Shown: positions 9,075 to 45,868, counted from the whole stretch's first letter. The stretch: 54,941 nucleotides of DNA, filler included, from Sphacelaria rigidula (GCA_964200075.2; 6 parts of 6 records of this genome joined end to end with filler, not necessarily neighbours in it), one strand, 5' to 3'. The notes: generated from the letters alone by a model not told the origin. Made by a program: numbers and translations.

Positions 9075-9174
9075 NNNNNNNNNNNNNNNNNNNNNNNNNN
9101 NNNNNNNNNNNNNNNNNNTTAATTAATTAANNNNNNNNNNNNNNNNNNNNNNNNNNNNNNNNNNNNNNNNNNNN
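9075..9174. other. Artificial contig linker (N44-TTAATTAATTAA-N44)
   Basis: 100-bp spacer with stop codons in all frames. It recurs every 9174/9173 bp. Confidence 0.98.
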
Positions 9175-12609: not shown

Positions 12610-12991
12610 ACGTAACGCGTGGGGTGACTTGCTGTTGCGCTGGGTAAATATTCCCACTTTGCCTGCGCGCGCTGTGGCGGTGTATGGTCCGTGTGAACCT
12701 GATGACTCGATGCCGTCCAAATCTGTTGTCCGCCAAGCGCAACGAAAAAACCTTGGGGCCGAAGACGCGGATGTGCAATCTTTCGAGTCGGACGTTGGCG
12801 CTGCTTTTTTGGACAATGAACGTTTGTTTCGTGTGCATGTGCGTGGCAGAAGCATTTTGTGGATTCCGAATTCTGACAAGCAGTTGCAGGCACGTCTGAT
12901 GATTTGCGCGCACATGCGCGACGCCGGGCAAAGCGGTGTGGCTGCGACACTCGTGCGCTTGCAAGAGTTTTGTGTCTGGCAGGATAGAAAC

Positions 12992-13250
12992 TATAGACCT
13001 CTGTCACCCAAGATCAGATTGCCATGTGGACTCCTCCCATCACGGGCACATGGACTTCAGCAGCTTTAGTTATTTACGTATTAACCATCAGCATAGTACA
13101 GGAGAACAGGACCATATAGCCTCTCTCCACCAGAGTGACAAAACCAAGCCTACTCGCCATGGAGGTCACCATCACAGAGTCCGGCAATCAGACCCGCAAC
13201 TCCACCTACAATATCCCTGATCTTAGGTAACAATGGTGGCTAGGTCTACA
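12992..13250. mobile_element. Solo LTR (259 bp) inserted in the integrase Zn-finger region
   Basis: Ends tatagacc (TG>TA) ... ggtctaca, with 4-bp TSD AAAC on both sides. Removing it rejoins EFCVWQD..THVRGFVRQCLHC. Confidence 0.8.
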
Positions 13251-14603
13251 AAACTCATGTGCGCGGATTTGTCCGCCAGTGTCTTCACTGTGCTAACTCA
13301 AGGGCGGGCGATGTTGTTCCCCACCCGCTGGGTGAAACGGTCTATGGGACCACGCCGAATGAAGTCGTCCGTTTTGACTTCTTGTACGTGGGCGAGAGTG
13401 GCCCGCTAGCTTCCCAAGATTTGTCGGAGGATGCTGGGTTCCGATACATTTTGGTAATCATGGATGATTGAGAAACCTTGTGGCTCTGAACCAGTAGGGG
13501 TGTGTACTGCTGAATCGACTACTGCGTCTTTGCTGAATTGGTGCAAAATTTTAGGGGTACCCCGTGTGTGGGTGAGTGATACCGCCACGCATTTCAAAAA
13601 TGCGATCTTGGCCCGATTGCGAGAGGCATTACGCGTTGATCGCCAGTTTGCGGTAGCGTATTCTCTCTGGTCTAACGGTACGTGCGAGTGCATGGTTAAG
13701 GAAGTAGTTCGTGCTCTTCGATGTATTCCTTTCGAGCAGCGTCGAGAGGTGACCGAGTGGGTGGACGTGTTGCCCGCTATGCAATGGGCGCTAAATACAG
13801 CATATCGCCGGCGGTACGATAGTACGCCGTATCACGTGATGTTTGGTCGTGCACCTCGGACGTCTTTCTCGGTGTTGGCGTCGTCATCGGCGGGGGAGTG
13901 GAACTGTGATGTCTTAGACGATGCGCAACTGAAGCGTGCGTTGCAAGGAGTTTTGGAGTTGCAGTAAAGTTTCCACGTTCAAGTGCAGGGGCGTGTTGCT
14001 GCTGAACGTGCGCGTAGACGGGAGGGGCCTTTGTCGGGGCTGAAATTGCCGAATTTCGAGGTAGGTGATTATGTTTGTATGCACGCGTGCGTCGCCCGGG
14101 AGTTACGCTTCAATTGATGGCGACGTGGACTGATCCGTGGAGAGTGGTTGGTGCTCATCATCCGCATGTGTTTGAGATCCAAAACATTGTTTCGGGTCGT
14201 GTTCAGACCGCCCATGTAGCTCGTCTGCGTTTTCATGCAGACTCACAGCTCAATGTAACGGCAGACGTGAAGGATGTGTTTCAGCACGCTTTTAACCAGG
14301 GGCAATTTCAGATGGCTGGGATTGTTCGCGTGGCAGAGGCAGAGGATCGTTCGTTGATCGTTTTGGTCGACTGGGTTGGTTTTGAAGTCGAGGAGCGTAC
14401 GTTGGAGCCTTTTAAAAATATTTTTGAGGCCGCTCCGAAATTTCTCAAAAAGGAGTTGCGTAAGGTGCGAGTGACTCGTTCCATTGCTGCTCGCATTACG
14501 CATGAGTTTGGTATTCAGTTGTGACTTGCTCAATCGTCTTGGCGTCATTTTTCCGAGTGTCAAGCTTGTTGCTCGATTCTCGTCCAACGCGCTTTGGGGG
14601 TGC

Positions 14604-15980: not shown

Positions 15981-17433
15981 CTCAATGATTCGAGTAGAAA
16001 CAGCCTGGATCCGATTTTAAGGTTCAACATTTGGGAGGGGCTGAAGCAGTCATCGAAATTTCATTCGTTTTGTCCAATAGGCTCGGGGTACGCAAGCAGC
16101 TTCGGCCATGACACTTGTGCCAGAAGCTTTTATACGGCAGCCCAAGCGTGATGAGCAGTTCAGAAGAAAAACCGCCGTCGTCAGGGTGCGGTGTTTTTCG
16201 AACAGAAGGACGTGCCTCTGAGCGCTACGGAACACGTAACAAAGCAGGTTGAGAACATACTTCTTTGGACTAGTCATCGAGTTTCTGAGCGCCTCTTGTT
16301 GAGTATCTGAGAGAGACTTCATACTGTTGCGCCGGCGACGACCGCCGTCAGCGACACGATCCAAGACGGCGACAGACGCCAGCGATCTTTGAAACGCAGC
16401 ATCATTCAGCAGTCTGCTTAGATACACCATCACCAGAGTACAGCATCACTACAGTACAATCGTCAGTTGGATAAAATGGATGCCCCACTCAGGGTTGGCC
16501 CCACGCTTGGGGTTGTTTCGCCAGTAGCGTCCATGAGAGACGCTTCATCCAGTCTGAACCAGCTATCACGCCTTGTATGGCCACTCCCGCCGTGGCTGTG
16601 TTGGGAACTGGTTTCGGGGTGGGACTGTCGAAGCATATTGTAGTGCAGCGCGCTTGAAAAATCCGAGCCATCCTTTTGTTATTTAGAACCCGCATCAGCT
16701 GTAGTCATAATAGATCTCCTCTGGGTCCCATAGAGCGTCTGAACTAGCGATGGAAAGTGCTGGCACCCTCTCCCTCAGAATTGTTTCGTGACAACCTCAG
16801 GGTTAGGATTAGTGCCCAGGGGAAGTCCTGAAATAACGGATGGTTTTCTTGGAAAGCAGTCGTCTATTGTAACGGGTATAAACCGTTCAAGCAAGGAAAT
16901 CTCGACTTTAAACAGGGAAATATTTGCCACGATACCCCTGGATACTCTTCTACATGTTTCATTCCGAGCGATGTTTCCCAAATACCTCCACGGTTGTCAC
17001 GAAACAATTCTGAGGGAGAGGGTGCCAGCACTTTCCGTCGCTAGTTCAGACGCTCTATGGGACCCAGAGGAGATCTATTATGACTACAGCTGATGCGGGT
17101 TCTAAATAACAAAAGGATGGCTCGGATTTTTCAAGCGCGCTGCACTACAATATGCTTCGATAGTCCCACCCCGAAACCAGTTCCCAACACAGCCACGGCG
17201 GGAGTGGCCATACAAGGCGTGATAGCTGGTTCAGACTGGATGAAGCGTCTCTCATGGGCGCTACTGGCGAAACAACCCCAAGCGTGGGGTCAACCCTAAC
17301 CCCCGTTGTATGTTTGTGCAGCTTTTTTGTGGGGCATCCATTTTATCCAACTGACGATTGTACTGTAGTGATGCTGTACTCTGGTGATGGTGTATCTAAG
17401 CAGACTGCTGAATGATGCTGCGTTTCAAAGATC

Positions 17434-18130
17434 GACACTTTCTACGATAGCCCCCCCAAAACGATTGCACGGTTTTGGGAGGCAAAATCTTCACGTAAAT
17501 CGAAATGGAAAAAGCCGAACACAGCGAGCAGCTGGAACTCCCCATCCTTAACACGGGATCTTACAAATTGGGGATGAATCATTTATCGGGGATGAGAAAC
17601 CCGGAGGATTAAAATGTTCGTATCCGCACCAATTCTTCGAAATATGGTTCCATTTCTTCACCTACTGATAACTCTTGACAACTGCTACACGCCATAGAAA
17701 TTCGGATTTCGATCACCGAAATGTCGGGATCCTAGGTGAAAAAACAGTTTTGTGGAATTCCGGGAGTCCGAGCGGACGCCAAAATGGTCCCGAAATTGTT
17801 TTTTTCACTTAGGACCCCGACATTTCGGTGATCGAAATCCAAATTTCAATGGTGTGTAGCAATTGTCAACAGCTATCAGTAGGTAGAGAAATGAAACCAT
17901 ATTTCGAAGATTTGGTGCGGATACGAAGATTTTAATTCTCCGGGTTCTTCATCCCCAATAAATAATCCATCCCCAATTTGTAAGATCCCATGTTCCTTGG
18001 GTTCGTTCTAGCCAATGTCGCCAGTATGAGTCGCTTCATGCAGCGTCAACCCAAACATCAGGCGCTGTATGGCCATTGTTTTCGTGGCACTTTTGGGCTG
18101 GTTTTGGGGGGGGCTATCGTAGAAAGTGTC
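17434..18130. mobile_element. Non-autonomous TIR element (GACACTTTCTACGATAGCCCCCCCAAAAC) with GATC duplication
   Basis: TIRs at both ends and GATC on both flanks. The empty site with a single GATC is preserved in the left arm at ~16384. Confidence 0.9.
17550..17994. mobile_element. Foldback MITE family F, copy 2
   Basis: Homologous to 2691-3137, with an exact 4-bp TSD CCTT (17546-17549 / 17995-17998). Confidence 0.9.
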
Positions 18131-18248
18131 GATCGCTGGCGTCTGTCGCCGTCTTGGATCGTGTCGCTGACGGCGGTCGTCGCCGGCGCAACAGTATGAA
18201 GTCTCTCTCAGATACTCAACAAGAGGCGCTCAGAAACTCGATGACTAG

Positions 18249-18348
18249 NNNNNNNNNNNNNNNNNNNNNNNNNNNNNNNNNNNNNNNNNNNNTTAATTAA
18301 TTAANNNNNNNNNNNNNNNNNNNNNNNNNNNNNNNNNNNNNNNNNNNN
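18249..18348. other. Artificial contig linker
   Basis: N44-TTAATTAATTAA-N44. Confidence 0.98.
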
Positions 18349-19224
18349 GGTGGCGGTGTTGGCGCGGCCATTTCCCGCGAGGAACAGTTTTTTTTTCTTT
18401 TCTTGTTGGGGCCCGGGGGCCCATGCCCCCCCCCCCCCCCCCCCCAGAATGATGTGCGTGAAAAATTCGGAGCGAAAACGGTCAAGCTGGCGTGTTTAGC
18501 TGCTTCCGCGTGTCTGGCCATTATTCGTACCTTTCTTAGGCAGAAAACGAGAAGGTATACCTTTTCAAGGCCATTGCCTTTTTGTATTATCCCTCTTTTT
18601 TCATTTGTGCACGAGATTGAGACCCCCTCCCCCTCCCCCCCCCTGCGCCCCGATAAAAACGAGGATTCAAAAAAGGTGCATAGGGTCTGGGATTCGGATT
18701 TTGGCCACCGTAGGCCGAGTCCTCGTTTCGCCCAATTTATAACGGAGAAACACGGAATCTCGGGCAGCCCATGCTGTAGGAATCCCATATACTGTAACCA
18801 GGATATATACGGCCAAATATACCTCTTCACCTGTATGCACGGTCCAACCGTATACACACCCCTCGAAGAACCCCGTAGTCTCGATAGAGCCAAACGTCCA
18901 GAAATAGCCATGTTTCTCGAACACCCGACACACAGGGCGCGCGCAGCACAGACGACATGCACACACGCACAGCACCTCAGGGCACACACGAACTACCATA
19001 GCGGCAAAAGCAGCAGCAGCAGCAGTAGTAGCATGCTTTACAGTAGAAATTCCGTTCCTGAACGGGTTCATTCTCGTCCGCTACGCAGTCGTTTGGGCCG
19101 TGCGATGCTTATAACGATCAGAGGCACATTCTAGCGAGCGTATCAGAGGCACATTGTGTCGTCTCCGCCACACACGCGGTCATTCGACTACCGCTAAAAA
19201 TACTCTGTTTCGGTCAACCTTTCG

Positions 19225-20095
19225 AGCCTCCGGAGGAATTTACCGCCTCCAGAAGGTGCGCGGACGTCCAGATGGGCGGGATCAAACGCCTCCAGGGGCT
19301 TGTTTTGCCTCTAGAGGGCCGCGCATCCCTCCGGAGGAATCTGGAGAATACGCGGCCCTTCAGAGCACCATATTTTTCGTTACTCTCAAGGGATTCAGAC
19401 CTCAGAAGTCACTGGATAGTCAGATGCCCTCCAGAGGATTCGTTTATGACTGCACCTGAGGATGAAATACCCTCAGGGCATTTGATCCTCGGGAGGATGA
19501 AAATCACGATAGAGGATTTTCATGGGGGTAGCCGAATGGCAGCATGTGTATTCCTCCAGAGTCCACCAAGAGCTTGTTCGCGTCGACGAACATCGCGGCG
19601 GAATACTGCTCTATAGCGACATACATGCGGTGGGATGAAGCCCTGGACGACTGTTGCGTTGATCTTCAGTGGGATGCGCGTATAGTTGGCCTGTCGAGGA
19701 CTTAACTGTCTTCTGGGGGCTTGATGTACTACTCACTCCGGAGGAACATGTACACACACTGGAGGATATTACACCGCTATTTCCTCCGGAGTCGTAAAAA
19801 TGCCCTATATACCATTATCGGTGGCTCCCTCAGAGGAATGTTGTCCAATTTTCGCCAGAGGTACGTGCAGCAAAGTAACGTGCTTCGGAGAACCATATTT
19901 GTGTTCCTCTGGAGGGACTCAGACCTCGTAAGGTTCGAGAGCATCATCGTGAAACGTGTGCCCTGCACAGGGTTCGTGTAACGTCCACTCCAGAGGCATT
20001 ACAAACCTCTACAGGGTAGTTTATCCTCCAGACGACCATTTTTCCCTCCAGGCGAGAAAACTCACGATAGAGGCATGTCAAGGAGGGGCCGATTG
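19225..20095. repeat. Repeat rich in CCTCYRGAGG-like palindromic motifs, with an internal direct duplication
   Basis: Motifs include cctccggagg, cctctagagg and cctccagagg. 19357-19535 resembles 19883-20092 (accatattt...cagacctc...tcacgatagagg). Confidence 0.6.
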
Positions 20096-20371
20096 GAAGA
20101 GTGTGTGAATGTGAGTACCCTATTTATTATTAGCGTGATGTCTCTCCGCTGCACAGTTTGATGAGTACATCGGCGTCCGATTTTTCCATACTTGATCCAC
20201 GTCAAAAACTATCCTTCGGAACCATATTTTCACAGACGCTCTTCTAGTGTCCAACGCCGCTTTTCTTTTCACAACTTTCCATATACGAACATATATAGAA
20301 CCAACTAGCGAAGTATATAGCACAACCTTCTCATAGCCACACGGTACAACACCCACTCCCACGACTCTCTT

Positions 20372-20690
20372 CTATTTTTATTTTTATTTTCATTTTTTGT
20401 CGCATTTCGAACCCCCCCCCTTCCTTCGGACGAGTCCGTGGTCTCAAGGGATCAACCCATCTCTCCCCCGGTACACGCCTTGCATTTTGGTCTCGTGGAT
20501 TGGATCAGCACTCCCGCACCGCGTCAACTCCTGTCAAACAAACTCCGTCGACTACTTCGTTCACTCGCGTTCTCACGCTTTCCACGGTGGAAATAACATA
20601 TTACGAAGAAAAAATCCGACGCATCCGGGATCAGACCCTCGTTCTCTCCACCTCAATGGTGACAGTTGGACCACACCACCGGGGCGCGGC
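20372..20690 (-). mobile_element. tRNA-derived SINE family B, copy 2
   Basis: Collinear with 2022-2335, with an A-rich tail and 5' head ccgcgccccggtgg. Confidence 0.78.
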
Positions 20691-22273
20691 GGCTTCTGGG
20701 ATTCTCTTCTGGGGAAGGGGGCAACTGGGGGTAGAGTAGAAAAAACACACCCGTGCCACCCGAAAAAAATACCACGTTGTTACTGTTGTACGCAAGCTCA
20801 TCGTGTGTGACGGCTTGCGAGAGAAACGCACTGCTACACTGCACATGCGAGGCCGCAGACTATTCATGACATACGCAAGAAAGATGGTAATTTGTAGAGA
20901 CCAACACGGTGCAACACACTGTACAACATCTACGCCCACGGTTCTCTCTAGGGTGAGAGCAAAACGAACAGACACCCCTTTCGCTTGGAGGTAGGACAAG
21001 TCCGTGTAATGGACGTGCAGCACACATACACATGCTTGTGAGTAGACATGGGGAAGCTTAGGTGTGGATGATACAATTTGCTGCTGCGTTGACACGAAAC
21101 GTACGGCAACGAGACAGTCTCATTAACGCCTCGGCTGGATCATGTCGAGATAATCTGCTTTGTAGAACACCTCTTCTGGTGAAAGCGCTTTCGCGCCTGC
21201 GTCGATGAGAGTTCAAGGAGCATTGTCGAAGGCGACACAGTCGCTACCGCCGGCGATCTGAGCACAGCTTTGAGCGCCTCATGATCATGCAAGGCGGAGT
21301 GTACGCCCAGTCTAGTTCCTCTCCTGTACCCTCTCGGGTAATTGGGGGAGTAGAGCCGGGAGAAAACAGGGGGTCCCTCTCCGTTAGACCCCCTACCTTC
21401 CTTCTGCGTCATTTGTCTCTCATATCCCGAACTCCGCAAAGCGCGACTTCCTGCGAGAGTTATGGCCGATTCACTGATTCCGCCGAGGCCACAATTGTTT
21501 CATTTTCAAAAGCAGGTACCAATCGACTGCTTAATACCCCCGCATATCCCCCGGAGGGTCGCCAAAAACCTCTTTTCTCTCCCCCCATTGTATCGCGAGA
21601 ACGTTCAGCAGTCCTGCGTGCGTCCTCAACAACCACATAAACTTTCACGGGCGCCCGTACACTGCATACAAGTACGAATGTCACGAAGTAACCGGGCTTG
21701 ATGAAAACTTTCGAGAGCATTTGTTCGAAACGAAATCCGGATCTAGTGCACCCCCATGAACTGCATGCTTCAACATGGTATGCGCCCGAATTCCATTCTC
21801 CGCCCGCGCATGCCACGAGCGAAACACGCCTTTATCAGTGAGGCTGATAACATCCAGCAGGGAACAAACTCACGGCAGCGACACGCGTAGGACAGGCGCA
21901 CACGTTATGGTTCACACACCCTTCCGTTGCCGCTGTTCATATCATACTAGCAACAGAGCAACACCAGATCCCGCGAGCGGGTGATCAAAGCGGTGTGCGT
22001 GGGAAGCGTGGGTACGGAGGTTCGTGAGTACTCAGATTGGTGATAAGTGACGACCCAAAGCTCGAGGACAAGTTGTCAGGCAGGCGTGATGTAAAACCGG
22101 GGGAAAGGTGAATTCATCGAGCCCTTTGAGACTGCCGACTGCGGCCGTGTCCCGAGCAAGGCAGAGGGGGCGAAGGGGGATAGGGGTGCTGGCAGCATAA
22201 CAAGGAACATAAAAACACGTTTGTTGACACCAGCACACTCAACGTTTCTATGCGACCTTATCCCCGTCGCCCC

Positions 22274-22507
22274 TTATCGCCACGACCGTCCCGCGCCCTG
22301 CCGAGCGTTACTCGAAGACGGACGTCGCCCGCCTGCCCCCCTCGTGCCTCCCGACCCCCCTCCTCCGCTACCCCCAATCCCCGAGGATGAATAGCTTGCC
22401 CCGTTCTCGGGTTTGCTTCGCTCTCTCTCTGCAATATTTACGGCCTCCTCGTCATAGAGCACGTAAAAACCACCGGTGTCACGGCAACGTCCCATAGATG
22501 CAGCGCC
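22274..22507 (-). CDS. Candidate terminal exon, unknown protein with Gly/Ser-rich tail
   Basis: Pyrimidine-rich upstream sequence and caacag| acceptor, then GAASMGRCRDTGGFYVLYDEEAV...GGSGGGGSGG...RSWR*. No family recognised. Confidence 0.35.
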   Translation of the reverse strand, partial: GAASMGRCRDTGGFYVLYDEEAVNIAERERSKPENGASYSSSGIGGSGGGGSGGTRGAGGRRPSSSNARQGAGRSWR

Positions 22508-23869
22508 CTGTTGAGCGCCGGAGAGGAGAGGGTCAAAATGAAAACATGACTGGGGTGCAAAGATAATCAACTCTGTGTGAACGGAGAGGGAACGGGGGGG
22601 CCCGAAATGTGTGAAGGGCAGCAAAATGATATGTTTCCGAACAGGGGAATCAAACCAGGCGATGCCTCCAGTGTTGTATTTTTGTTGGGAAAAGAGTCTC
22701 CGCAACAGAAATACCGCTGCGCTTCAATATCCAACACTACGCTAAATCTCCGGTTAGCGCAAAAACTGAGACGAACTATGAGGACAGCCAACAAACCAAC
22801 GGCCATGCTACAATTTGCAACCAAGTGGCATCAAACGTGTCACTACAGTAGGACGACTCGAGACACGCTGTCTCGTCAAAATCAACGCACAACATACCGC
22901 CGCCGTCTCGTCCACACCCTCACATGAAACATCTACTTTACGCTCGCGGCGGAACATTGCAGAACAACCAAGTATACTGGGGGTATTGACCGTGTTGTTA
23001 CTGAACACACACATACCTCAAAGTTTCTGTCCTGTTTGGTGCGTTGGTTGCGTCGATTCACTCGGCAGCGAGAGATAGCTGTGGTTGCTACTCGCTCTAT
23101 TTGGCTAGCCAGCGACGGCCGGTATATATGCTACGTGTTCGCTGACACCGAACACCACAGCCACGTGAGGCTACTACTATGCCGCATGTTCCATCATATA
23201 TGACATACGCGTGCCAAGACACCGATACGTCGAAGTCATTATTTGGCAGAAAATTGGTATGTATGGGACATGATTCACGATATCACCTTGTACGACGGAT
23301 CCGAGAAGTCTGGAGGGACCACGACGGCAAAGATATCCCGGAGCAAACTCGTCTGTCGACAGGAGAGAGAGAGGTAGAGACAGAGATAGAGACAGAAATA
23401 CACAGAGAGAAATGGAGGGATAAAAGGGGAAGAGAGACGGAGAAACATCAAAAAAGAAAAGAGATGATAATATATGGTGGTGGGAATTCGAAAAGACAGA
23501 AGAAAAATACGGCGACGTTCATGAACACACCCCTCACGCCTTCAAAAAAACTCTAGATGTCGTCTTTTTCCAACGTGGTCTTCATCCACAAACCAGGGGG
23601 GCGTCATTTTTCGTACATGTCCCTTCGTTCCGAAAGGTCCCCAACAGCGTGCTTATCCCTCAGGACAGGACAACTCCGCGGTACACGCCAGTCTCATTTT
23701 TCCAAGACGAGATAGGTTGCACAATGTATCTCGACGATGCGTGTGGCTTGTCACCGACGGTGTTGCCACACGTCGTACGGGGATGAGACCCCGCAAGGCG
23801 ATGAGAGCTCCCCCGCGCCCGCTTTGTGATACTGTAACGTGCTGTCATTGATAAAGCTGTCATCGAGAG

Positions 23870-24890
23870 GGGGGTATCGAGGATACGGTGGAGTCCTCAT
23901 GATCTTGTATGCCATCGTCATAAGCCCGTTGACTTCGCACTCCTACAAGGCCGGGACGGAGCACACCGGGTTTTCGCCGAACCAGGCTCGCGATTAGTCA
24001 CCAAGGGCGAAACGCCGTGGCGTATTCGGCGAGTTGCATGAAGGGTGAGAGTGTTCGGCTTGAAGGGTACTAATTACCTTGCATGTGGATGACAGCCTTC
24101 AATTTTTTGCTTGATTTTCTGACATCGCCACTTCCAGAGACAGCCACAGGTTACGCTGCAACATAGGTGTCTCATCATTTAAACACTACGGATTCGCGGG
24201 GGGAGGTGTCGCGGAATTCCTCTTATCAGGGTTCCCATCCGATCTTACTATTACTTCGAAGACTGCGGAGGGAAAACATGGCGATAAGGTTTCTATTCTG
24301 GGGCCGAGGGAGGGGGGGTGTACTCATGATCATGTATGTCATAGTCTTCAGTACATTGACCTCGCATCATTACAAAACCGGGACGGAGCACGCCGGGTTT
24401 TCGCCGGACCAGGCTCGCACTCAATCACCAATCGCGAAGCGCCATGGCGTGTTCAGCGAGTCGCATGAACGGTGAACTGCGTCCTGCTAAGATTGTTCGG
24501 CCGGAAGCATATTGATTATATTGCATTTGGATGAGAGTCTACAAGGAGTTGCTCTATTTTTCTGGTATCGCCACTTCCAGAGACAGCCACGGCTTATATA
24601 TTCCGCCATGGGTGTCTCATCACCTCAACACTACGTTGTACGATCATCCCCTTTGTGCGGAGCGGAGGTTCTCGCACGCCGCACAAAATGATCTAGCTCG
24701 ACCACCATCATGGTTATCCCCAAAAACTACAAGCGCGCAAAAACAATCGGTAACCTGGCTGCCTAGCTTACACAGTGAGTTGCGTGTTTTATAGCGTCAT
24801 CGCCAACCGACGCCAACCCCATCGGGAGTTCACCCCTACAAAGCCGGGACGGAGCAAGCTGGGTTCTCGCCGGACCAGGCTGGCTGACAG
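23870..24890 (+). repeat. Three clustered copies of an interspersed repeat (core tacaaagccgggacggagcacgccgggttttcgccggaccaggctc)
   Basis: Copies at ~23870-24190, ~24310-24635 and ~24790-24885. Further minus-strand copies at ~39055-39355 and ~51335-51445. Confidence 0.85.
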
Positions 24891-25913
24891 GGAAGGGTGG
24901 GGGTGGCATTCGCGTTATTCGCTTCTACTCTTCTCTACTACAGCCTCAATATCTCTACATGTACAAGGGTGTCGACGGCTTTCATCGCACGCTCAGTGGG
25001 TCGACAGCCAAGATACATGAGCACCTGTGATATTTATGTGCGTTGCATAACGGTACACAGCAAGGTTCAAGGAAAATGTCGTGGTTGCTCATCAGTTGAG
25101 CACGTGGCGCGTGACCTTTCACAAGTCTGCAAGTATTGCAATTAGAAACGGTTTCCGGTGTGAACAGCATACGCACACGTACGGGCGGCACCCGTCGAAA
25201 ATAATGTCCATTCAAATTTGAAAAAGAAAGGATACCGGTTGCATGCAGCCATTCATGATCAAAACAAACGCATGGCGGTAGAGTAGCAGCAGCAGCAGCA
25301 GCAACAGTAGTGAAAAGACAGAAAAAGAAAGTACCCCTGAGACGATGCATCATGCGTGCAAGATCGGAACACGCTCGAGGTGAGCCAGCCCCGGCCCACG
25401 GTAGACGGTGGTCAGTGGGGAGTGGTAGCGCGTTGACCGCTTTACGTAGTACACGTGAATCACGATGCCATTTTCCTGACACACAAGCGACGGAAAACCC
25501 TCGCCCATGACGACGACTTCTCATGACACTACGCACGAGTTCCTTGCGTGCTGCATGGTTGAGTTCTGAGGCATTGACCACGAACAAAGTTCGCCGAGGA
25601 CGAATGCGATTGTTTTTTTCGTTTTTAGCGCGCTGCAGCCGGCGACCTCCAATGGCGGCATCATCAACAACACTCTAAAATATTCGTAGGTCCGTGGCGT
25701 TCAATGAATCAAGGACATTTCTCGGGCCGGTATTGAACGTCATTTTTTTTTTCCCTACAAAATGTCCAGACTCTATCAGAGGAGCGATGACGTATTGATA
25801 TATATGATTGCTCGGGAAACGTTTTTTTTCCCCGACCGACGAGGTGGAATAAGGAGATTGATGCGATGCAAAACAGAAACAGAAACAAAACATCATCACA
25901 CGGGAAGTATATA

Positions 25914-26560
25914 CTCCCTCTGTCCCATAAATGAAGGTATCTAAATTGTACGGGCCCTTAACGATGTCCGATTTTTTTTTTAAATGAACTCTACGGTTCT
26001 CATTTTATTTAATCGCGTGGAAATTTCTGGCAGCGAGCCCCAGTGAAGGCGGAGGCGATTAAAACAAATAAGAAGAAAAAAATCGACACTTTCCCCTCCC
26101 CCCGGAAAGGGGGAAGAAACGGGCATTTTTGGGCCGACTACTTTTTTTGCAGCCGTTCGGCGGCATGGTTCAAGCACTAGCTGTAAATTTCAAACACATT
26201 TTCTTGACCCAAAAAACACCGTAGAGTTCATTAAAGAAAAAAAAGACTAATGCCGAGATAGCCCCCCCTGAAAATTGCACCGCAGACCGTCCGACAAACC
26301 GGCTGCTATCCCACTGTTGGGCTCGTTTGCAGCAATTTCGCACACATGAGGCGTATAGCAGTCCGAAATCAGATATGACACCCAAATGAGTCGCGTCGTG
26401 CGGCACGAAACCAGCTAGCTCTAACGGCATTTATGATCATCGCCTCCGTGCACTTTTTTGGCCGGTTCGGGGGGGGGCTATCTCGGTAGCAGTCAAAAAT
26501 GATCGGACATCGTTAAGGGTCCGTACAATTGAGGTACCTTTACTTATGGGACAGAGGAAG
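25914..26560. mobile_element. Stowaway-like (Tc1/mariner) MITE
   Basis: TA|CTCCCTCTGTCCCATAA ... TTATGGGACAGAGGAAG|TA, with inverted similarity extending about 60 bp (cccttaacgatgtccgat). Confidence 0.9.
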
Positions 26561-27422
26561 TATACGCCTATTCCACGTGTTTCTATCTCCGGTTGATGAG
26601 TTTGGGTTCCTCAACCCCGCTTCCTTTCGTGTCATCCTAGCCATGCCCCCCATATTCAGGTGAACTTTGTCCTCGCCGGATTACTCAGAACAAGACAGAA
26701 TGTCCATCACTGTGCGCACGTTGGTAATTCGTGTGCTAGTAGGACCTGCTTCGGGACTGTTTTGGACTACTTATCTGCATATGTTCGCGTCGTACTTACT
26801 AATGATTTTTTTCACCATATTTCAAAGTGGAAATATTTTCCCGTTTTCTCGTGCGACCCGAAAGTCTCAAGAGATCAACCACATCTTGCGATTTTGGTAT
26901 CGAGAATTTGACCAGGACTCTCGCACCCGTCTACTTTCGGCGGCTACCGTTCTTTGCTTGTTGCGTTCTCGCGCCTTCAACGACAAGATGAACCCAGATT
27001 CTGCCCGAAACCGGCCACCGCATCCATCGGGGTTCAACCCTGAACCCGTCATACAAACCGGAGCGCCGGGGTATTGATATTAATCTGGCTGCTCGCCTGT
27101 GATGGGAATGGGGCCGAACGGTGACCGTTTTGTTCCTCCCATGTTGACTACTTTTACTCCTATCCCCCCATGATACCCTCTCTCGAGGCGAGACGTTGCC
27201 ACAAAGGGTCGACACATTCCCTTCCCCGGCACAGTACATGCCCGACAAAAGCTTACGAGTGTATCGAGGATTGTACCAGCACTACCTCAGCCAGCGCAAT
27301 TCCACCGAACTATGTTGTCAACTCTCATCCGTACACGTTCCCGAAGGACAGAAAGCAGCGGGGGGCGGCGGGGGGGGGGGGGGGGGGTACTCATTTTTTG
27401 TTTGCCTTAGGTGTTTGAGCCT

Positions 27423-27522
27423 NNNNNNNNNNNNNNNNNNNNNNNNNNNNNNNNNNNNNNNNNNNNTTAATTAATTAANNNNNNNNNNNNNNNNNNNNNN
27501 NNNNNNNNNNNNNNNNNNNNNN
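27423..27522. other. Artificial contig linker
   Basis: N44-TTAATTAATTAA-N44. Confidence 0.98.
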
Positions 27523-28994
27523 TCCAGACCCCCCCCACCCATCCTCCCCCATTAATATACTGCTTGTTGTCGGTGACATTCTACATGTTCTGTTTCTGGA
27601 TGTGACGGACGCCCTCATGGGGTCGGTAGAGAGGATGGTGCAGCATCAAAGCGTGCCTCGTCTCATGTGATCATTATACTACCGCTTGCTGCAATGTACA
27701 ACCCGTTGGTTGGACGTGAAAACAGGTGTAAGCGACGGAGGGCAAGGCACGCCGCAGTCGACAAAGGCAGCAGTAGTAAGCGACCATATGTGCGTGTGCA
27801 GCGCTCGGATGGCAATAGACATATGCGACCAACCGTCTTCAAGTTTCCTGCTTGTAAGCACGATGCCGCAACCAGCACCGTGGTGTCAGTTTGCACCTCT
27901 TCCTCCCAGAACAGGGTGGTGACACTGGTGGATACAGACCCAGGGCGGAGCAGCTGCTCAAGAGAAGAGTGTCACACGTGAGTCCGCCTCCTGCTTTGTT
28001 TCATTTCGGACTCCAACACCAGGTAGCGACATGATAAGGTGGTGAGGGGAATAACCTTACGTCGAGGCTCGCGTTGCCGTCACCGTTTCCTCCTTCGAAC
28101 GTGATCCGGACAGTAAAACCGGAATTGTCGTGGCCGCTCATGTGCTGTCGTCGGTCATGCCAACATATCTAGTGCTGGACTGAAAACTTGGTGATTACTA
28201 AATTGTGTGAGCGGACCAAGCTAAAAACTATCGAATGTGAAGGGCTAGGGCTCCGCAGTCGATCCATGGAATCTGCTCGGTGGGCGTTGAGTTTCAGCGA
28301 CGTGTTCTCCTCTGCACCTTTTTCACGTCAGTCTTTCGGACGCAGGTAGCGGGCGGCGACAGGTCGGAACCAGCGGCGGCCAAGTGGAGAGTGTGGCCGA
28401 TGACGTGTGCAGTCACGCTCGCGCAGCCTTCAATGCCCTGACTGAGAAGACCATGCAAGTTGCCGAGAGGGTGGCATTTGCGACACCGAAATCTTCACGA
28501 AACATGTGTGCGAAGCGACGGGGAAGGGTATGTTGTCGCAGGAGGACGGCAGGACGTTGGTTTAAATGGCCAAGAATGCAGAGCTTGTCGGAGTGCCCCC
28601 TCTAGTACGAGTAGGTGCAACGGGGTTCTTTGCCGTGCGAGAGAGCGTGGGTCGTACGGTTGAGCACGGGTGGGCGCATGTGAAGAAAGATGACAACCAG
28701 GAGACGCGATTAATGTGCAAGGTAACGTGGTTATACATACGGCAATTGCACAGCATAGTAGGGCTGAAATATTTGACGTCGGTACGCGTGTGCTGCAACC
28801 CTATCTGGTACACTAGCTATCGGTACTACCTCGCTCAGTATCTCAATATTGCGAAACGACATATTTGTGCGTGACATGAACGGGGAAGTTGTCGAGGCCC
28901 ATGGCTAGCTCACTTTCCATATGTCGATGTTCATATCAACATGTCCGTGTACACTCAGGAGTACGAGGCCGCCCATATATCGTGAACCCCACAG

Positions 28995-29414
28995 GCTGCC
29001 AGAGGGAAACGGTGCATAGAAAGCATACTGCGAGGAACTGGGAAGTGCAAACACACGAACATGGTAGCGCTGGGTTTGTGCGCACAGGGAGATAAATCGG
29101 TGGGCTCTGGTGCGGAGGTGGATGCTGTGAAGGCGCCTGCGGATAGCTCTGATTCTCAGAGGCCGCGTGAACGGGCGGGGGGGCGATCAGCCTTCGCTTT
29201 TTCGCAGGAGAGACTCGAAGCGTTCCGGAGAAAAAATCGGGACTCCCTCAACCTCATGGCGGTAGTCCAGTTTCCACCACGAAAACCGGCTGGGCTCCCT
29301 GCATACAACAGAGACTTGGAGCAATCAAAGTTCACAGCATTGCAGGAGCGATGTAGTTTGTGCAGGGGATCATTCACGCCGGCAGGTTCGGTCACAGCGA
29401 AGTTGCTGACCCGG
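28995..29414 (+). CDS. KDZ gene exon: second half of SWIM-like finger and start of CxC domain
   Basis: cccacag|GCT ... CGG|gtaagg, open: AARGKRCIESILRGTGKCKH...ERCSLCRGSFTPAGSVTAKLLTR. Confidence 0.75.
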
Positions 29415-30624
29415 GTAAGGCAACGGTGGGAAGAATAGGCCGGTAGTGTGACGTTCAGTGTTTTCAGCACGGAAGGGAGCATGTGGTAGGTCAGGCGTTT
29501 ATTGATATTGTTTTGGAACTTTCCGCGGGATCTCGTCAGGGCATAACGAAGCAAAAGAAGTGGGTCAAAAACATTTTACTGGTCTAGGACGTTTCAGAAC
29601 GGTAAACATAGTTTTTGCACGAGAGCGCCCCAACCTGCCTCTCAAGAGGGAAGTGAAGGCCCATTTTTTTCTCTTCAGGATGCCTCTGCGATTCTCCATT
29701 CTCAGTCTCAAGTCACAATTGGAGAAACTGAGCTGAAAACTGAGGTAAGTTCCAAGAGCAATATTCATGTTCTCTCAGAACTCTCATAAAAAATTGAAAA
29801 ACAAATGAAAAATTAAAGAAGATTTTCCAATCATCATGCACTACGACCTGGGCCAGCCAATAGTGGGTGTAAATCTCGCTCAGGCGACGCACGGCGCGAT
29901 ATTAGGAGTTGGACGCTGAAATGTTGACAACAGCTTGTTATAATCGGAATGCAGAAGATCACGTGAGCAGCAAAGAAAAAAACAAAAAGTTAGAGGCACT
30001 TGAAATTTCAGCGCAAATAAAATAATGTCATACGTCCAGGAAAAAAATGAGAATCTGCAGGTGGACGCGTGAAGCATCAGCGCCGTGAATGTAGAGGGTC
30101 CTCCCTAATCTTTCAGCACAAGAGTCGTCGAAGTGGGCCGTGCGTTCAATATTTTCTGTGACGCTGCTGCACCACTATAAATCAAGTGATGCAAGTCTCC
30201 TATCATGGAGGTCACGAGTTCGAATCCAGACATATTCTCTTTTTTTTTCGTCCGTCGTTAAGGTCATACATTGTGCAGCACATTTGCTTTCATTTTTTTC
30301 TTCATTCATAAGTTTTGATTATTATATTTTTTCACATATAATTGTTTCAGTTTCAGGCTTAAGAATCCTCCAGCCCAGTCTGCAAGGTTGCAATGACTGT
30401 GGATTGCACAACTGGCAATGATAAGGCAGCACAGCGGTATTTGGAACGGCGGGTGTACCTCTTTTTCTCCTAAGGCGGGAAGCTATGTCCTTTATCCTCC
30501 TCGCTCAACCCCAATTTTTTCTATGCTCCCAAGAGAATTGTGCTCGAAACTATGCTGGCGTAGTCGGTAAAAACGAAACACCATCCTTCCCTTTTCGTGC
30601 CCCCCCATACCTCGCCTTTTTCAG

Positions 30625-30881
30625 GGCGTTGGCGGTCTCCAACTCGAAGCAGTCACGGTAGACCGAAGGGAGTGTGGGTGCTGGACCGCTGCGATTTGTG
30701 ACTGGCGGAGCACCGGAGTTTTTCATTTCGGCAACAGCTGGGTCATCGAGGTGCACGTTCTGTACAATTGTCTCGACGGATTCATGGCGGGCACTCCCAT
30801 CACGACATGGTTTGAAGCGGAACTTGAGCACCTTGAATTTGACACGTCATTGGGAAGAGCTAATCAAGAACTTCACTTGAG
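30625..30881 (+). CDS. KDZ gene exon: CxC4-like domain
   Basis: ctttttcag|GGC ... AG|gtgggt, open: GVGGLQLEAVTVDRRECGCWTAAICDWRSTGVFHFGNSWVIEVHVLYNCLDGFMAGTPITTWFE... Confidence 0.78.
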
Positions 30882-31892
30882 GTGGGTGATGCGGCAATTG
30901 ATTCAGGAATTACTCGGTCCGTTAGGGTGCGTTGTTGAGTGTTGACCCGCCCGTAATGTTCGAGGCTAGGATCATCACGCGCTGGTTGGTGTCCAGGGTG
31001 ACCACGTACGTCCACACGGTCGCTGGAGTTCGTGATTTTCCAGGCCCGATCTGACGTCGGCCGATTGAGAAGTTGTCGATAATGTACTTCGACGTCTTGA
31101 GTATCAAACTACCTTGCTGGAGTATTTTACCCACAATCGCAACAAAGTATTTTCGACGGACAGAAAACTAATGCAGTTTGGGTCACGCTCACCACCCCAA
31201 ATTGTGTCATCAGCGAACGCATTTCGCAATTCCTGCTCCATAGTCGCACACGTTATATCATACAGACTGCTATGGACAGCTGAAGAGCGTGACTTAGCTG
31301 GAGTTGTGTGCAAGACCATGGTGGTAGTACCTCATTTTCGTGCACAACCTCATCTTCAACAGTCGTTTGTTATTTCTTCAAGTTACGACGTCACCATGAC
31401 TCGTCAAGGTTTCCGTTCGATCCCAGGTTTTGGAAATGTAGACAAAGTAGTACAGAGTTCCTTTCGATCCCATACTTTGGGAATGTAGAGAGATGACTAC
31501 CCGACACAAATTAGTAGAAAATATATGCCATATCACCAATTTGAGCGGGATACCGACTTACCGGTCGTTCGGGGTCCTACGAGTGTACAGGCGCAGTTTT
31601 TCTCTCTCTTATTGTTTTGGTCAACCCATAGATTCGCCTGTTATAGCGAAGAACCAAATGGACTATATGTTGTTTTCCTATACACTCGTAGCGCTACAGC
31701 CAAAACAGGGTGTTTTTTGGACCATGCACGTTCAATACCACCCCCTCGATAAACGGGGTTTTAAGTCCATGTAGTTCCAACTACACAAAACCGGGACATG
31801 TGCTCGAAAGACAAGTTACTTCTTTTCTGCCGTGCGTGTCGCCACCGCCGATGCCACCTTCGCCCCTCTTGTTTCTCTATTCTACGTGCTAG

Positions 31893-32789
31893 CCTTGTCC
31901 GCGGCGACAATTTGCTCAATACACTGAAGAACGCCTTCCTAGCATTCTTGACGTTGATCGATTTTCCGATGGAGTTCTGGTGCTGGCAGTGGGGCGACTT
32001 TCCCGATATTCTCACCTTCGACGCCTGCATGAAAGTCGGAACCGATTTCATCACGAGCACCCCCCTGGATGCGTCGCGGCTAGAGCAGGACATCGACACA
32101 GACCTCATCTCTACCCTCTTAAAGCTGACGTTGGTGTCACCGATCTTCTTCAGAGGCCTGAGAGTGGCCTTTGTCATGGTGGACGGGGCAAGTGTCAGTC
32201 TCCCCGCATCGAACGTGCCGTCCACCCCTTGCGGTTGCGAGGAAAGGAACGCCATTCACGACGTGTACGCGCTGAAAGCGAGGTCGCAACCTCACGCCCC
32301 GCAGAGCCAACTCAGTGTGGAGGACCTCCTGTCCCACCGCGGCAACTTGAGTTCGTCCGCTGGCAGGGCGGCATCCCTGGCGGCTACTCGCAGCATTTCA
32401 TCGCTGCGTGTGCAAGGCCAGCGTATCCCATCTCTTTACGAGGTGCTCGTTTTCACGTACCATTGGCATTCAGCGGTGACGGCTCAGGGCATCGACGTCG
32501 CATCCGTGGGAATTGAAGGATGGGAGCTACTCGCTGCAGATGTAGCGCCATCCCCACCGTCTTCTGAGAGTGGGGGTGGATGGTCGCAGAAGGGAGACGA
32601 TAGACTACAAGCCGTTCGCGTGTCAGACGCTTTGGAGGTTGAGCGAGAGCTACTTGTTGTGATATCGGGATCTCGGGAAGGTATCCCTCCCTCTCTACCG
32701 CGCTTGGAGAAATGACCAACTGGGTGGTGGAGCAGGCAACTTGTCGACCGTTCGTCAGGGTAATAGACGGGCTGCATTCCCACGCAGAG
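31893..32789 (+). pseudogene. KDZ gene exon: first catalytic Asp region and insert (frameshift near 32710)
   Basis: gtgctag|C completes AG+C=Ser. Translation LKNAFLAFLTLIDFPMEFWCWQWGDFPDILTFDAC, donor gag|gtaagg at 32790. Confidence 0.72.
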
Positions 32790-32984
32790 GTAAGGGAGCT
32801 GTGGCCGGAGACGATCCCATCATTACATGCGACAGTAGGATGGGAAGAGAAACGAAGGTGCTGAAATCAAAATAACTAAAATTGACGACCGAAATAGTGC
32901 ATGTTTTTTTTTAGATGCCATACGTCGGAGGAATGACCACCCCTCGAAACGAATGCATTCGTTAGTGTTTTTTTAAAACACCGA

Positions 32985-33330
32985 GCGTGACTCCTACGCT
33001 TAAGTGATTTATTTAGGAAACCAACGAGCAGGGCTCGTTTGCTCACGTCGCTTATTTTTTTCACCACGAGCAACGACTCGAGTGCTGAAGTCATTATTCT
33101 TTTTGCCGACGAACGACGACGTGAGTGGTCGAGCTATTAACTTTTGTAACCAGGAGAACACTGTCGTTTTCTAGGGTCGTTTATTTGTTGAACCACGAGC
33201 AATGGGTCGACTGCTCGAGCTTTTCATTCCCTGGACCACGACCAATTCACTCGTGTACTTGAGCCCTATCGTTTTTCCACCACGAGCGCTCACTGGTTAG
33301 CTCCAATATTTTTTTTCCCACCATGAGCTA
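32985..33330. repeat. Array of ACGAGCAA(T/C)GACTCGAGTGCTCG-like units inside a KDZ intron
   Basis: About 7 degenerate ~40-bp units. The same motif occurs at 36205-36540. Confidence 0.75.
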
Positions 33331-33394
33331 CTTACTCAGCTGGTGTCCGTCCAGAATCTCAACCGCAAGCTTCATTTTACTGTGCGTCGCGCAG

Positions 33395-34366
33395 GCCAAG
33401 GTCCGATTTGTTGTGGAAGGCCTGCTCCCTTCTGGCCCAGAAGACCGGATAAGAGCCGGTAAGTCAGTCCGTCGCGCGTGCTCGTAGGAGAAGGTCCCGT
33501 GGGCACAGATTGTCCATGTGCGCTGCCACACGCGCACGCTGGAATTTCCCCATGTATGAGGCAATGTACCCCAGTTTCCCGGTGTAGCCCACGCAAGTTA
33601 GTCCGTATACTACACTGCTTCACGATCGTGCATCGAAAAGCGCGAAACGCACTAACGGTCAATTATCCCCGCGGGTTTGACTGTAATCTACCCGTCTGTG
33701 CTCGTCCCTCGTCATCTTCCAGAGCGCGCCGTACGCAGTGGTATCGGCTTCAGCCAAAATGTTGCCTCGGTCAAGTCCCTGCAAATAACTCTGGCCCCGA
33801 ACGTTCTTCCGCATGATAGCGCCGGAGAGGACTCCAAGGTCGCAGGTTACGGCATAAAATTCCACGACACGGCCAACGATGGCCACAAGCACACCTCCAA
33901 TGGCCGGCGTCGCCCGCATCCCCACACGCGTTGCTCAAGCGGAATGTACGTCGGGCCCGATGGTCCGCACGAGAAGAACCACGACGCTGACTGCAGGCGA
34001 AAGTACGCTGGGTTGTCTCAATGCTTGGAAATTAGCGGCGTAAATCTTAATCCCCACGAGCAAGACAATTCCCTCTTGACTTTGCACGTGCGTACGCTAT
34101 CCAACATGACGCTAGAGGTCTTGACTTACTCTCCACGAGTCATTCACGAGGTACGCAACGAGGCCATCAACATGGAAACCCTGATGAGGATCGTACGAAA
34201 TAGCATGCACCACAGGAAGGGAGGGGCTGCCACGGTCTGTGCATTTGACATCTGGATCCGCGGACGGTGCTTTTGTAACTTCCCCTTGATGCGAGTGTTT
34301 GACCGCTTTGGGAGGGTTGATGTAGTCTCCTTGCGTGCGGTACTTGGGCAAGGGAAGGCTTCATGA
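33395..34366 (+). pseudogene. KDZ gene 3' region: catalytic core (D...H/H...E)
   Basis: gcgcag| acceptor, a degenerate CS*EK..IVHVRCH segment, then IKFHDTAN, DGPHEKNHDADCRRKY and GVNLNPHEQDNSLL. Confidence 0.75.
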
Positions 34367-34699
34367 GGCGCGTTGCAGGGGTGGGGGGGGGTCGCCTCTG
34401 GGAGGGAGTGTTCTTTGGGCAGGGGCGGTGATGCCATTGAGTGCGCTTGCTGTGGGTGGAAAGTGATTTGGGTGTTCGCGGCGTGCCTGTGATTGGGTGG
34501 CCGTTGCGGTTGTCGTTCTCCGTTCGTTGTACTCTTTTGGAAGTACTTTCAGATTTGTCGTGACACTTCAACACGTCTATGAACATGCCCATTTCCCTGA
34601 GTTTTACATATTTCGATCTCGATCCCCCATCAGCATTCCTGTATAATCGTCATATTCCGTGAGCGCCTGGCAAGGGCAAGAAAAATGACCACTGGTATT

Positions 34700-35930
34700 T
34701 CACCCGGTCATCACATAATAATCGTCGTGAACCACCGCCTGTCCTTCGGGACCACCGTCTGCCGTTCGACCCTGGAATATGAAAATATATCACGTAGTGA
34801 TTTTTCATCTGGTAGTTGTCGTACATCATCGGCACTCGTTAGGGAACGCCGTGTCTACTTCGACCCCGGAAAGTGAGCGAATGTTACCCAGTCATTTACA
34901 TATGACACTCGTTGTTCACTACCATCAGTTGCTCGGAGAGATCGCTCGTGGTACGACCCTGGCAGATGAACCGGTATGATCCACTGTTTACCGAAGATAC
35001 TCGTTACCCATCACCAACACTTGTCCGGGACCATCATTTTTGCACACTGGCACATGATTAAAAAATAGCAAGAACAATGCTACGTTAGGGGTGCGCTTAT
35101 TTCACGAAATTTTGTCTGGTTCAGGGGCTTCTAACGATTCTATAGACGCACAAGAATATGGGTCAGGGCATTCCCGTTTGCAGATTCATTCGGGATATCC
35201 CCAGCACATTGGAATAGTAATTCTGGCGTGCTCTCGCATATTTTCATAAGTCGTGTTTTGGATGAAATAAAGGGCTCCTAACAATTCTAACCTCAGAAAA
35301 TATTTGTGTACCCCTACCGTAGCACCCTTCGCAAGATACCTGGCACATGATACTCGTCATTAATCGTGGGCACTTGGTCGGGAACATAGTCTTTACTGAG
35401 ACCTTAGAAGGTGAAAATATTCTAGGCACAGAGTTTATACGTGCCAATCGTTGTCTAGCACCAGCACTCGTTTGGGAGTATCTTTGTTTATCTGACTCTG
35501 GCGGGTGATATAAAAAAAATTGGCCGGTGATCTCTCACAATACACGGTGGATGCCCACCACCATTAGTTGCTCGAAGAGATCGCTTGTTGTACGACCGTG
35601 GCAGAGAACCGGTATGATCCAGTGATCACACGACATACTCGTCACCCATCATCAGAACTTATCCGGGACCATCATTTTTGCACCCCGGGAGGTGGGAAAA
35701 AAATCGAGCGGGAGACGTTACACATGATACTCGTCGTTAAGCATGGGCACTTGATGGGGAACATCATCTCTACTCAGACCTTGGAAGGTGAAAATATTCG
35801 AGGCACAGGGTTTAAACGTCCCAATCGTTGTCCAGCACCAGCACTCGTTTGGGGACATCTTCGTTTATCTGGCTCTGGTTGATGAAAAAAACATTAGCAG
35901 GTGATCTCACACATGAGACGGTGAGTGTCA
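34700..35930. repeat. ~375-bp degenerate tandem repeat (about 3 units) downstream of the KDZ gene
   Basis: Recurring gcactcgtt.ggga, agttgctcg.agagatcgct, ccgggaccatcatttttgcac and gaaggtgaaaatatt. Interrupted by 35077-35324. Confidence 0.75.
35077..35324. mobile_element. Short TIR element (TGCTACGKTAGGGGTRC)
   Basis: tgctacgttaggggtgcgc ... gtgtacccctaccgtagca. The same left end appears at 54881-54941. Confidence 0.75.
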
Positions 35931-36204
35931 TATCCGTTAACCCACGTTACATCGAATGCGTATCTGACACACTAGAATGATTCCTCTTCCTTTCTTTTTC
36001 ACTCGAAAGGTGCACATGACTATTGATCAGAGAAGAAATTTCTTCTCACTTGTTTACAGGTTGATTGATCCTCGTTTGGTGCTCTCTCTCATGGCTTGAT
36101 CACCGACATCATGCTGAAACAAGCCGTCATTCAACAAATGATTTCCCCCCATCATATTGATGCCGTAATCCTAAATGTCCGCCTATGAGGGTGTGTGTTT
36201 TTCC

Positions 36205-36540
36205 AAAAGACAACGAGCATGACTCGTGTGCTCGAGTCATTACTTTTTTTTACAACGAGCAATGACTCGAGTGCTCGCCCTATTACTTTTTTCCCCAACG
36301 AGCAATGACTCCAGTGCTCGCCCTGCTAATTTTTTCCCCAACGAGCAATGACCCGAGTGCTCGCCCTTCTCATTTGTTACCACAACGAGCAATGACTCGA
36401 GCGCTCGCCCTACAACTTTTCTTTCCACAATAACTCGAGGGCTCGTGCTCAAGTCATTCACTTTTTCACGTGGTATGGCTCGTGTGCTCGCTTGCTCGAG
36501 TCATCTATTTCTTCATCACGAGCAATGACTCGCTTGCTTG
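36205..36540. repeat. Tandem array of ACGAGCAATGACTCGAGTGCTCG units (~42-bp period)
   Basis: Units at ~36213, 36255, 36298, 36341, 36385 and 36518, separated by T-rich linkers. Confidence 0.85.
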
Positions 36541-36595
36541 TGTTTTTTCTGGACAACCCCAGGACCAATCATCAATCACTGAAGTGATGGACGAG

Positions 36596-36695
36596 NNNNN
36601 NNNNNNNNNNNNNNNNNNNNNNNNNNNNNNNNNNNNNNNTTAATTAATTAANNNNNNNNNNNNNNNNNNNNNNNNNNNNNNNNNNNNNNNNNNNN
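36596..36695. other. Artificial contig linker
   Basis: N44-TTAATTAATTAA-N44. Confidence 0.98.
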
Positions 36696-45768: not shown

Positions 45769-45868
45769 NNNNNNNNNNNNNNNNNNNNNNNNNNNNNNNN
45801 NNNNNNNNNNNNTTAATTAATTAANNNNNNNNNNNNNNNNNNNNNNNNNNNNNNNNNNNNNNNNNNNN
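45769..45868. other. Artificial contig linker
   Basis: N44-TTAATTAATTAA-N44. Confidence 0.98.

Follow-up and report, generated by a model that had tools for sequence, protein, structure and literature searches.

A transcribed, spliced gene of very probable transposon origin in Sphacelaria rigidula, most likely a decayed copy of a KDZ transposase gene

Does a stretch of Sphacelaria rigidula DNA in which the open reading frame (ORF) track shows only scattered pieces conceal a spliced transposase gene and, if so, to which superfamily does that gene belong? The question arises at 27694–34366 on the + strand of a 54,941-nt window (the whole stretch of DNA analysed), where an earlier note, made from the sequence alone, had described a hidden, multi-intron SWIM-CxC4-KDZ transposase in a probable brown alga. 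The window consists of six pieces of ~9073 nt, artificially joined by identical 100-nt linkers (N runs around TTAATTAATTAA) at 9075–9174, 18249–18348, 27423–27522, 36596–36695 and 45769–45868, spaced every ~9173 nt; neighbouring pieces are not necessarily adjacent in the genome, and the genomic context of the gene is the piece 27523–36595 only (9073 nt). We find here a gene with at least seven exons on the + strand, which is transcribed and spliced at GT-AG introns with frames that join. That it is a transposon-derived, repeated and transcribed gene can be held with high confidence. It is best explained as the transposase gene of a repeated family of brown-algal DNA transposons. This family most likely falls in the KDZ superfamily as a Zisupton-like type, bearing a CxC4-type zinc cluster at the N-terminus, an assignment that we regard as probable but well short of secure.

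The gene structure was established with contigs from four public runs aligned on 27600–35000, one DNA-like (X1) and three RNA-like (X6, X7 and X8, from one study). The label "RNA" for X6–X8 is a computed guess rather than a recorded property, supported by the exon/intron coverage pattern; it is credible because the repeat-free intron bins 29576–29822, 30317–30563 and 32787–33033 have a depth of ~0 in X6–X8 but are covered in X1. Six GT..AG joints were found in all three RNA-like runs and in 0 X1 contigs. Four of them fall at the junctions that had been predicted (28721|28995, 29414|30625, 30881|31893 and 32789|33395), observed as joints 28719>28993 (cut +2), 29413>30624 (cut +1), 30879>31891 (cut +2) and 32787>33393 (cut +2), and two additional introns carry the same evidence (27977>28332; 33457>33722, cut +1). 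A transcript joining the segments had been set beforehand as a test of the prediction, and RNA-like contigs span all four junctions; X6 records 11 and 12, which cross the junctions 29414|30625 and 30881|31893, follow the window sequence with 0 other letters. Minor splice variants use a donor at 30750 (joint 30748>31891) and acceptors at 33725 and 33815. The hidden multi-intron gene on the + strand was thereby confirmed and enlarged by two introns (27978–28331 and 33459–33722), a clean case of a coding gene hidden from the ORF track and recovered exactly by RNA-derived contigs.

Exon 1, the coding part of an upstream frame (27694..27977), begins with ATG 27694 in a frame open from 27577 and is followed by intron 1 (27978..28331, 354 nt), with GT/AG ends. 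Exon 2 (28332..28721), which holds a frameshift site behind 28476, a TAA at 28563–28565 and ATG 28566, is separated by intron 2 (28722..28994, 273 nt) from exon 3 (28995..29414); a Cys/His motif spans the exon 2|3 joint, and CSLC stands at the end of exon 3. Intron 3 (29415..30624, 1210 nt), with a high-copy repeat inside at ~29823–30316, leads to exon 4 (30625..30881), which bears a CxC4-like cysteine cluster (ECGC...C...), and intron 4 (30882..31892, 1011 nt), with a repeat at ~31058–31304 inside, to exon 5 (31893..32789), which contains the candidate catalytic D 32020 (TFDAC), a frameshift behind 32700/32701 and, near its end, a candidate second D in VIDG. Behind intron 5 (32790..33394, 605 nt), which contains degenerate 43-nt repeats (32979–33235), follow the 64-nt exon 6 (33395..33458, with joints on both flanks), intron 6 (33459..33722, 264 nt) and exon 7, which extends to the stop TGA 34364–34366 (33723..34366) and encodes PDGPHE-x-NH-x3-C (an H-x3-H-x3-C motif), HEQ (E 34058) and a C-terminal GRCFC cluster. 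Exon 7 is the most conserved and most repeated part of the gene.

Joining exons 2–7 from ATG 28566 to TGA 34364–34366, with X at one break behind 32700, gives 812 codons with no other stop. The phases are compatible as predicted, and the motifs quoted in the earlier note were found in the joined exon frames. The window's own uncorrected frame from ATG 28566 reaches a stop at codon 552. An independent protein has the last two exons in the same arrangement: P0001, which its source names as a partial protein of Sphacelaria rigidula, has exons 6 and 7 joined and shares 82% identity with the last exon.

The copy in the window is non-functional and unable to make the full protein. Its decay, which had been read from stops and frameshifts, comprises one in-frame stop, two 1-base frameshifts and a probable internal deletion. 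At the first frameshift, behind 28476, other copies have an extra T (TTTT; TTT here), seen in X1 (2 contigs) and X8 and absent from X6 and X7; the TTT variant is real and expressed, since X6 and X7 are without the extra T. At the second, behind 32700/32701, an extra T occurs in part of the RNA-like contigs and in one X1 contig, and 6 aligned full-length proteins of the P0102 cluster read straight through the site. With the 28476 break written as X, a 172-codon frame runs from ATG 27694 to the in-frame TAA at 28563–28565, directly before ATG 28566. Because the upstream frame is open over more than 200 codons, we infer that it once belonged to the coding sequence and that the TAA arose as a nonsense change. 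This TAA is shared by an RNA-like contig (X8 record 22) with 0 other letters over 28332–28719. As for the deletion, P0103 and P0104 (68% and 54% identical to the window, the latter by tblastn) match exon 5 up to VMVDG (32187), after which the two share ~75 conserved residues (PTWIGP..FHKS..GDGKAL) that are missing from the window and its transcripts. Since P0103 has a nearer relative in the window than in P0104 (53% identity), the simpler assumption is that the segment was lost in the lineage of the window, and an internal deletion after 32187 is probable there.

Relatives of exon 7 were sought in a library of 1.84 billion protein cluster representatives (50%-identity clusters), which yielded 101 at E up to 0.001, 55 at 1e-10 and 8 at 1e-30. 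All 101 are at most 357 amino acids long and are therefore exon-sized fragments. Among 20 clusters examined, named members were five proteins in four clusters, and all five are from Phaeophyceae (Sphacelaria rigidula, three from Ectocarpus, and Laminaria digitata), in keeping with the brown-algal origin that had been proposed. The family consensus reads LGPDGPHE-x-NH-x3-C, followed ~22 residues later by GVN-x-N-x-HEQ and then by a C-terminal C...W..GRCFC cluster. Several relatives have these motifs broken, and the acidic and His/Cys pattern is conserved across relatives that are only 30–40% identical. For exon 5, only 3 proteins were found at near lengths. Searches of metagenome, genome and viral contig collections found no related locus, and in the ESM Atlas exon 5 had no usable match and exon 7 scored only 0.81–0.84, to unnamed clusters.

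The gene is also repeated within its own genome. Altogether 2590 X1 contigs align at ≥90% identity to 27600–35000, and the summed X1 depth rises from ~19 on exon 4 to ~90 on exon 5 and 800–1278 on exon 7 and its 3′ flank; summed contig depth is not a copy number, and we use it only to show repetition, strongest in the 3′ part of the gene. As X1 depth is high up to 35000, the repeated element reaches past the stop codon. Repeated, divergent and partly decayed copies, as expected of a transposable element, are what we find. In addition, one X1 contig (depth 24) is exact over 30805–30973 and then continues at 27669, 3.3 kb upstream, which suggests that a rearranged or tandem copy exists at another place in the genome.

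To which superfamily the gene belongs was judged first from its domains. Pfam scans (24,736 models) were run on single-exon pieces, so that domains split by introns (SWIM-like, CxC4 and the core) were tested exon by exon; exon 1 had no Pfam match, nor had exon 3 at E up to 10. The only relevant match among the exons was CxC4 (PF18717) on exon 4, at E 0.011; its 16.0 bits are below the cut-off of 26.9, and a longer piece gave E 0.026. It covers profile positions 46–104 of 130, and the missing first third would be encoded by the end of exon 3 (CSLC...), on the far side of intron 3. What gives this match weight is that it belongs to one of a handful of KDZ-linked models among the 24,736, was predicted beforehand and lies at the expected place, upstream of the candidate catalytic exons; the CxC4 domain is defined as N-terminal to KDZ transposases. 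The order of motifs used as a template is sound, as PMC11343200, in the part that deals with it, gives a KDZ domain with CxC4 and SWIM as the canonical Zisupton architecture. Among the papers searched, none joined HMGXB3, which the earlier note had named as a domesticated relative, and Zisupton.

As candidate catalytic residues, the earlier note had nominated D 32020, D 33866 and E 34058. D 32020 is kept in 3/3 aligned relatives that cover the column (P0103, P0104 and P0120), and E 34058 in most, not all, relatives, but D 33866 is not conserved, the relatives having F, V or I in that column. The D of PDGPHE is invariant. In fungal KDZ transposases, an FH-x3-H-x3-C motif stands ~20 residues ahead of the catalytic E, a spacing that this gene shares.

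Several results weigh against a KDZ assignment. The CxC4 score alone is at noise level: a control scan of 33 other ORFs of the same piece gave chance matches down to E 0.014, none of them transposon-related. The KDZ catalytic model (PF18758) had no match at E up to 10 in exons 5–7 or in P0102–P0104, and it matched 0/29 and 0/102 members of the exon-7 family at the same limit, with the caveat that single exons were scanned and that this copy seems to be without part of the core. With the same limit of E 10, no SWIM match was obtained for pieces of exons 2 and 3, and the Cys/His motif shared between these exons, SWIM-like at best, reads C-x7-C-x10-C-x-H, compared with C-x-C-xn-C-x-H for canonical SWIM; CxC7 likewise had no Pfam match in the exon pieces. 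Structure prediction did not bring the domain to light either. The AlphaFold2 (AF2) model of exon 7 (mean predicted local distance difference test (pLDDT) score 69.9) had no Foldseek match in the PDB at E up to 0.001 (best 0.71) and reached a best Z of 3.9, to helical look-alikes, in a VIA-align comparison over 48,161 chains; exon 5 (11 rows) modelled at pLDDT 32.4, which is unusable, and the exon-7 profile, searched against PDB sequences, reached a best E of 7.1. Searches for long relatives, with exon 5 among proteins of 479–2000 amino acids and with an alignment among those of 626–2000 amino acids, found none, which is weak evidence. Within the 9073-nt piece, no inverted repeat frames the gene and no target duplications are visible; the termini would lie outside it. 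The profile test that had been set beforehand came out half against the prediction, with a sub-threshold CxC4 match for 30625–30881 and no KDZ/CxC match for 33900–34120. Overall, these sequence comparisons leave the SWIM-CxC4-KDZ identity weakly supported.

The same evidence bears on the strongest competing explanation, that the gene encodes the transposase of another or an unclassified DDE superfamily, such as EnSpm/CACTA-Plavaka (CMCT) or a brown-algal "DNA/Unknown" family, and that the CxC4 match is due to chance. An H-x3-H motif stands shortly before the conserved E, and, because CMCT transposases have H-x3-H too, this motif does not separate KDZ from CMCT, a further point against the KDZ assignment. 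Ectocarpus, as described in the sections of PMC12477816 on its transposons, has EnSpm elements with spliced genes and 51 DNA/Unknown families, and the absence of any KDZ catalytic match among 102 members, with CxC4 at noise level, would be expected here as well. However, the CACTA and Plavaka Pfam models are likewise unmatched in the exons and the family members, C(2)C was not seen beside H-x3-H in the family consensus, and the sole sub-threshold match is to a KDZ-associated domain at its expected place in the protein. We consider this explanation unlikely, if worth keeping in view. An equally tentative proposal is that the gene represents a transposase lineage found throughout the brown algae, with a catalytic region that current KDZ, CACTA and Plavaka profiles fail to recognise; it would form either a deep new branch of KDZ or a separate superfamily. 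As correctly spliced transcripts with an almost intact 812-codon frame are still made, intact, possibly active copies may then exist in the genome.

Alternatively, the relatives could form a multi-copy gene family, restricted to brown algae, that has ceased to encode a transposase or never did so, such as a domesticated or host-kept zinc-binding protein, with the window copy as a pseudogene. Its transcription and correct splicing in three runs, its long open frame, a catalytic domain undetectable by profile or fold, and the "unnamed protein product" gene models in annotated brown-algal genomes would all suit such a family. Nevertheless, the 101 divergent clusters, many of them visibly decayed, and the unequal depth along the gene fit a transposon better, near-identical expressed copies share the in-frame TAA (X8 record 22), and the acidic and His/Cys pattern is kept across distant relatives; we judge a host gene family to be distinctly improbable. 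That there is no gene, the motifs and splice sites having arisen by chance, might be suggested by the near lack of Pfam matches but is refuted by the six contig-confirmed joints, the 812-codon frame and the 101 relatives (8 at E up to 1e-30), which leave it next to no probability.

If the gene is indeed a KDZ-type transposase, an intact protein would have ~1000 amino acids or more. Its N-terminal Cys/His modules would bind the ends of the element, and an RNase H-like D,D,E centre would cut and paste the element, with 8-bp target duplications as the result. This centre would be composed of D 32020, a second D, the H-x3-H-x3-C motif and E 34058, the second D either having been lost in this copy or lying in VIDG at the end of exon 5. 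The copy in the window would be mobile only if an intact relative supplied the transposase.

Other repeats lie in and around the gene. The repeat in intron 3 (29823–30316) has a very high copy number, with a summed X1 depth of 16,000–33,000, and that in intron 4 (31058–31304) reaches ~2,400; many contigs diverge at 29874/29875, 29982 and 30191. A tRNA-derived short interspersed nuclear element (SINE) was considered for the high-copy intron repeat and was unsupported, with no tRNA genes or Rfam matches in 27523–36595. Downstream, 1.8 kb behind the stop codon, stands a tandem array of 5.1 copies of a 43-nt unit (36210..36430, strand unassigned; consensus beginning ACAACGAGCAATGACTCGAG), to which the degenerate copies in intron 5 (32979–33235) are related, and X1 contigs show a variable repeat copy number around 33054–33086. 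The array may mark a subterminal part of the element, as Ectocarpus KDZ families have tandem repeats in their termini, or it may be a minisatellite with no relation to it. The 3′ flank also contains a pair of 180-nt direct repeats (35335–35514 and 35712–35891), which are 84% alike and separated by 377 nt.

The window as a whole is eukaryotic and repeat-rich in character. Its second piece carries a long terminal repeat (LTR) retrotransposon pol at 10684–12606 on the + strand (RVT_1, E 1.4e-13; RT_RNaseH_2, E 3.9e-08), with flanking ORFs over 9291–14521, and ends in nested near-perfect inverted repeats (16270–18248; 306 nt at 99%, 118 nt at 100% and 106 nt at 100%), which are either a large palindromic structure or an assembly artefact. 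At the start of the window, 1–315 is occupied by a long, imperfect run of CTG/TTG triplets, which would be read as poly-Leu from one strand and as poly-Gln from its complement.

The locus extends the record of giant-transposon-type genes, here as a broken copy, to a second brown-algal lineage and shows that the family is still transcribed. Since spliced KDZ genes have already been catalogued in brown algae (the Ectocarpus families covered in PMC12477816), the description of the system as little-described no longer holds; the gene is an ordinary decayed transposon copy whose superfamily is not proven. What is less ordinary is that every current profile misses the conserved catalytic-side exon of a family spread across brown algae. 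In brown-algal assemblies this last exon (PDGPHE..NH...C...HEQ) occurs widely, in the form of short "unnamed" proteins that no Pfam model matches, and a profile built from last-exon sequences would allow such fragments to be masked as transposon-derived rather than called as genes.

How does the gene compare with known systems? The closest are the KDZ elements of Ectocarpus, for which PMC12477816, in its treatment of them, gives 8 curated families with 6403 copies making up 1.8% of the genome, with single spliced transposase genes that are often frameshifted, with nested insertions, with termini that contain tandem repeats and with 8-bp duplications; the best blastp match of KDZ-1_Ec32 is given there as fish Zisupton. 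Compared by description, KDZ-1_Ec32, KDZ-2_Ec32 and the other Ectocarpus KDZ families share with our locus the brown-algal host, a spliced transposase gene in frameshifted or fragmentary form, the nesting of other repeats inside the element, a multi-copy state and, if the 43-nt array belongs to the element, tandem repeats near the ends. In contrast to them, the gene here has no KDZ-domain match, and neither termini nor 8-bp duplications are visible.

EnSpm/CACTA-Plavaka (CMCT) elements, including EnSpm-1/2_Ec32, are alike in having H-x3-H before the catalytic E and spliced genes in giant brown-algal elements (as set out in the relevant parts of PMC12730594 and PMC12477816), whereas the family consensus here has no C(2)C motif, which belongs to the CMCT definition given in PMC12730594, and no Pfam match. 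Platyfish Zisupton and KDZx1 of Cryptococcus deneoformans, which combine KDZ, CxC4 and SWIM, from what is described of them in PMC11343200 and PMC12062965, resemble the gene in its proposed order of a Cys/His finger, a CxC4-like cluster, a catalytic region and a C-terminal cysteine cluster. They differ from it in that CxC4 is sub-threshold here, SWIM and KDZ are undetected and the finger reads C-x7-C-x10-C-x-H; fish Zisupton ends in a CxC7-like cluster, whereas CxC7 was undetected by Pfam here. Finally, Zisupton-3_cRei of Chlamydomonas is an algal KDZ-class element, giant at 31.7 kb, that was seen excising (as described in bioRxiv 10.1101/2022.05.23.493040). It comes from a green alga and is likened here by description, and its activity was demonstrated, whereas the gene in Sphacelaria rigidula is known from sequence and transcripts; Zisupton-3_cRei nevertheless indicates that such elements can remain active in algae.

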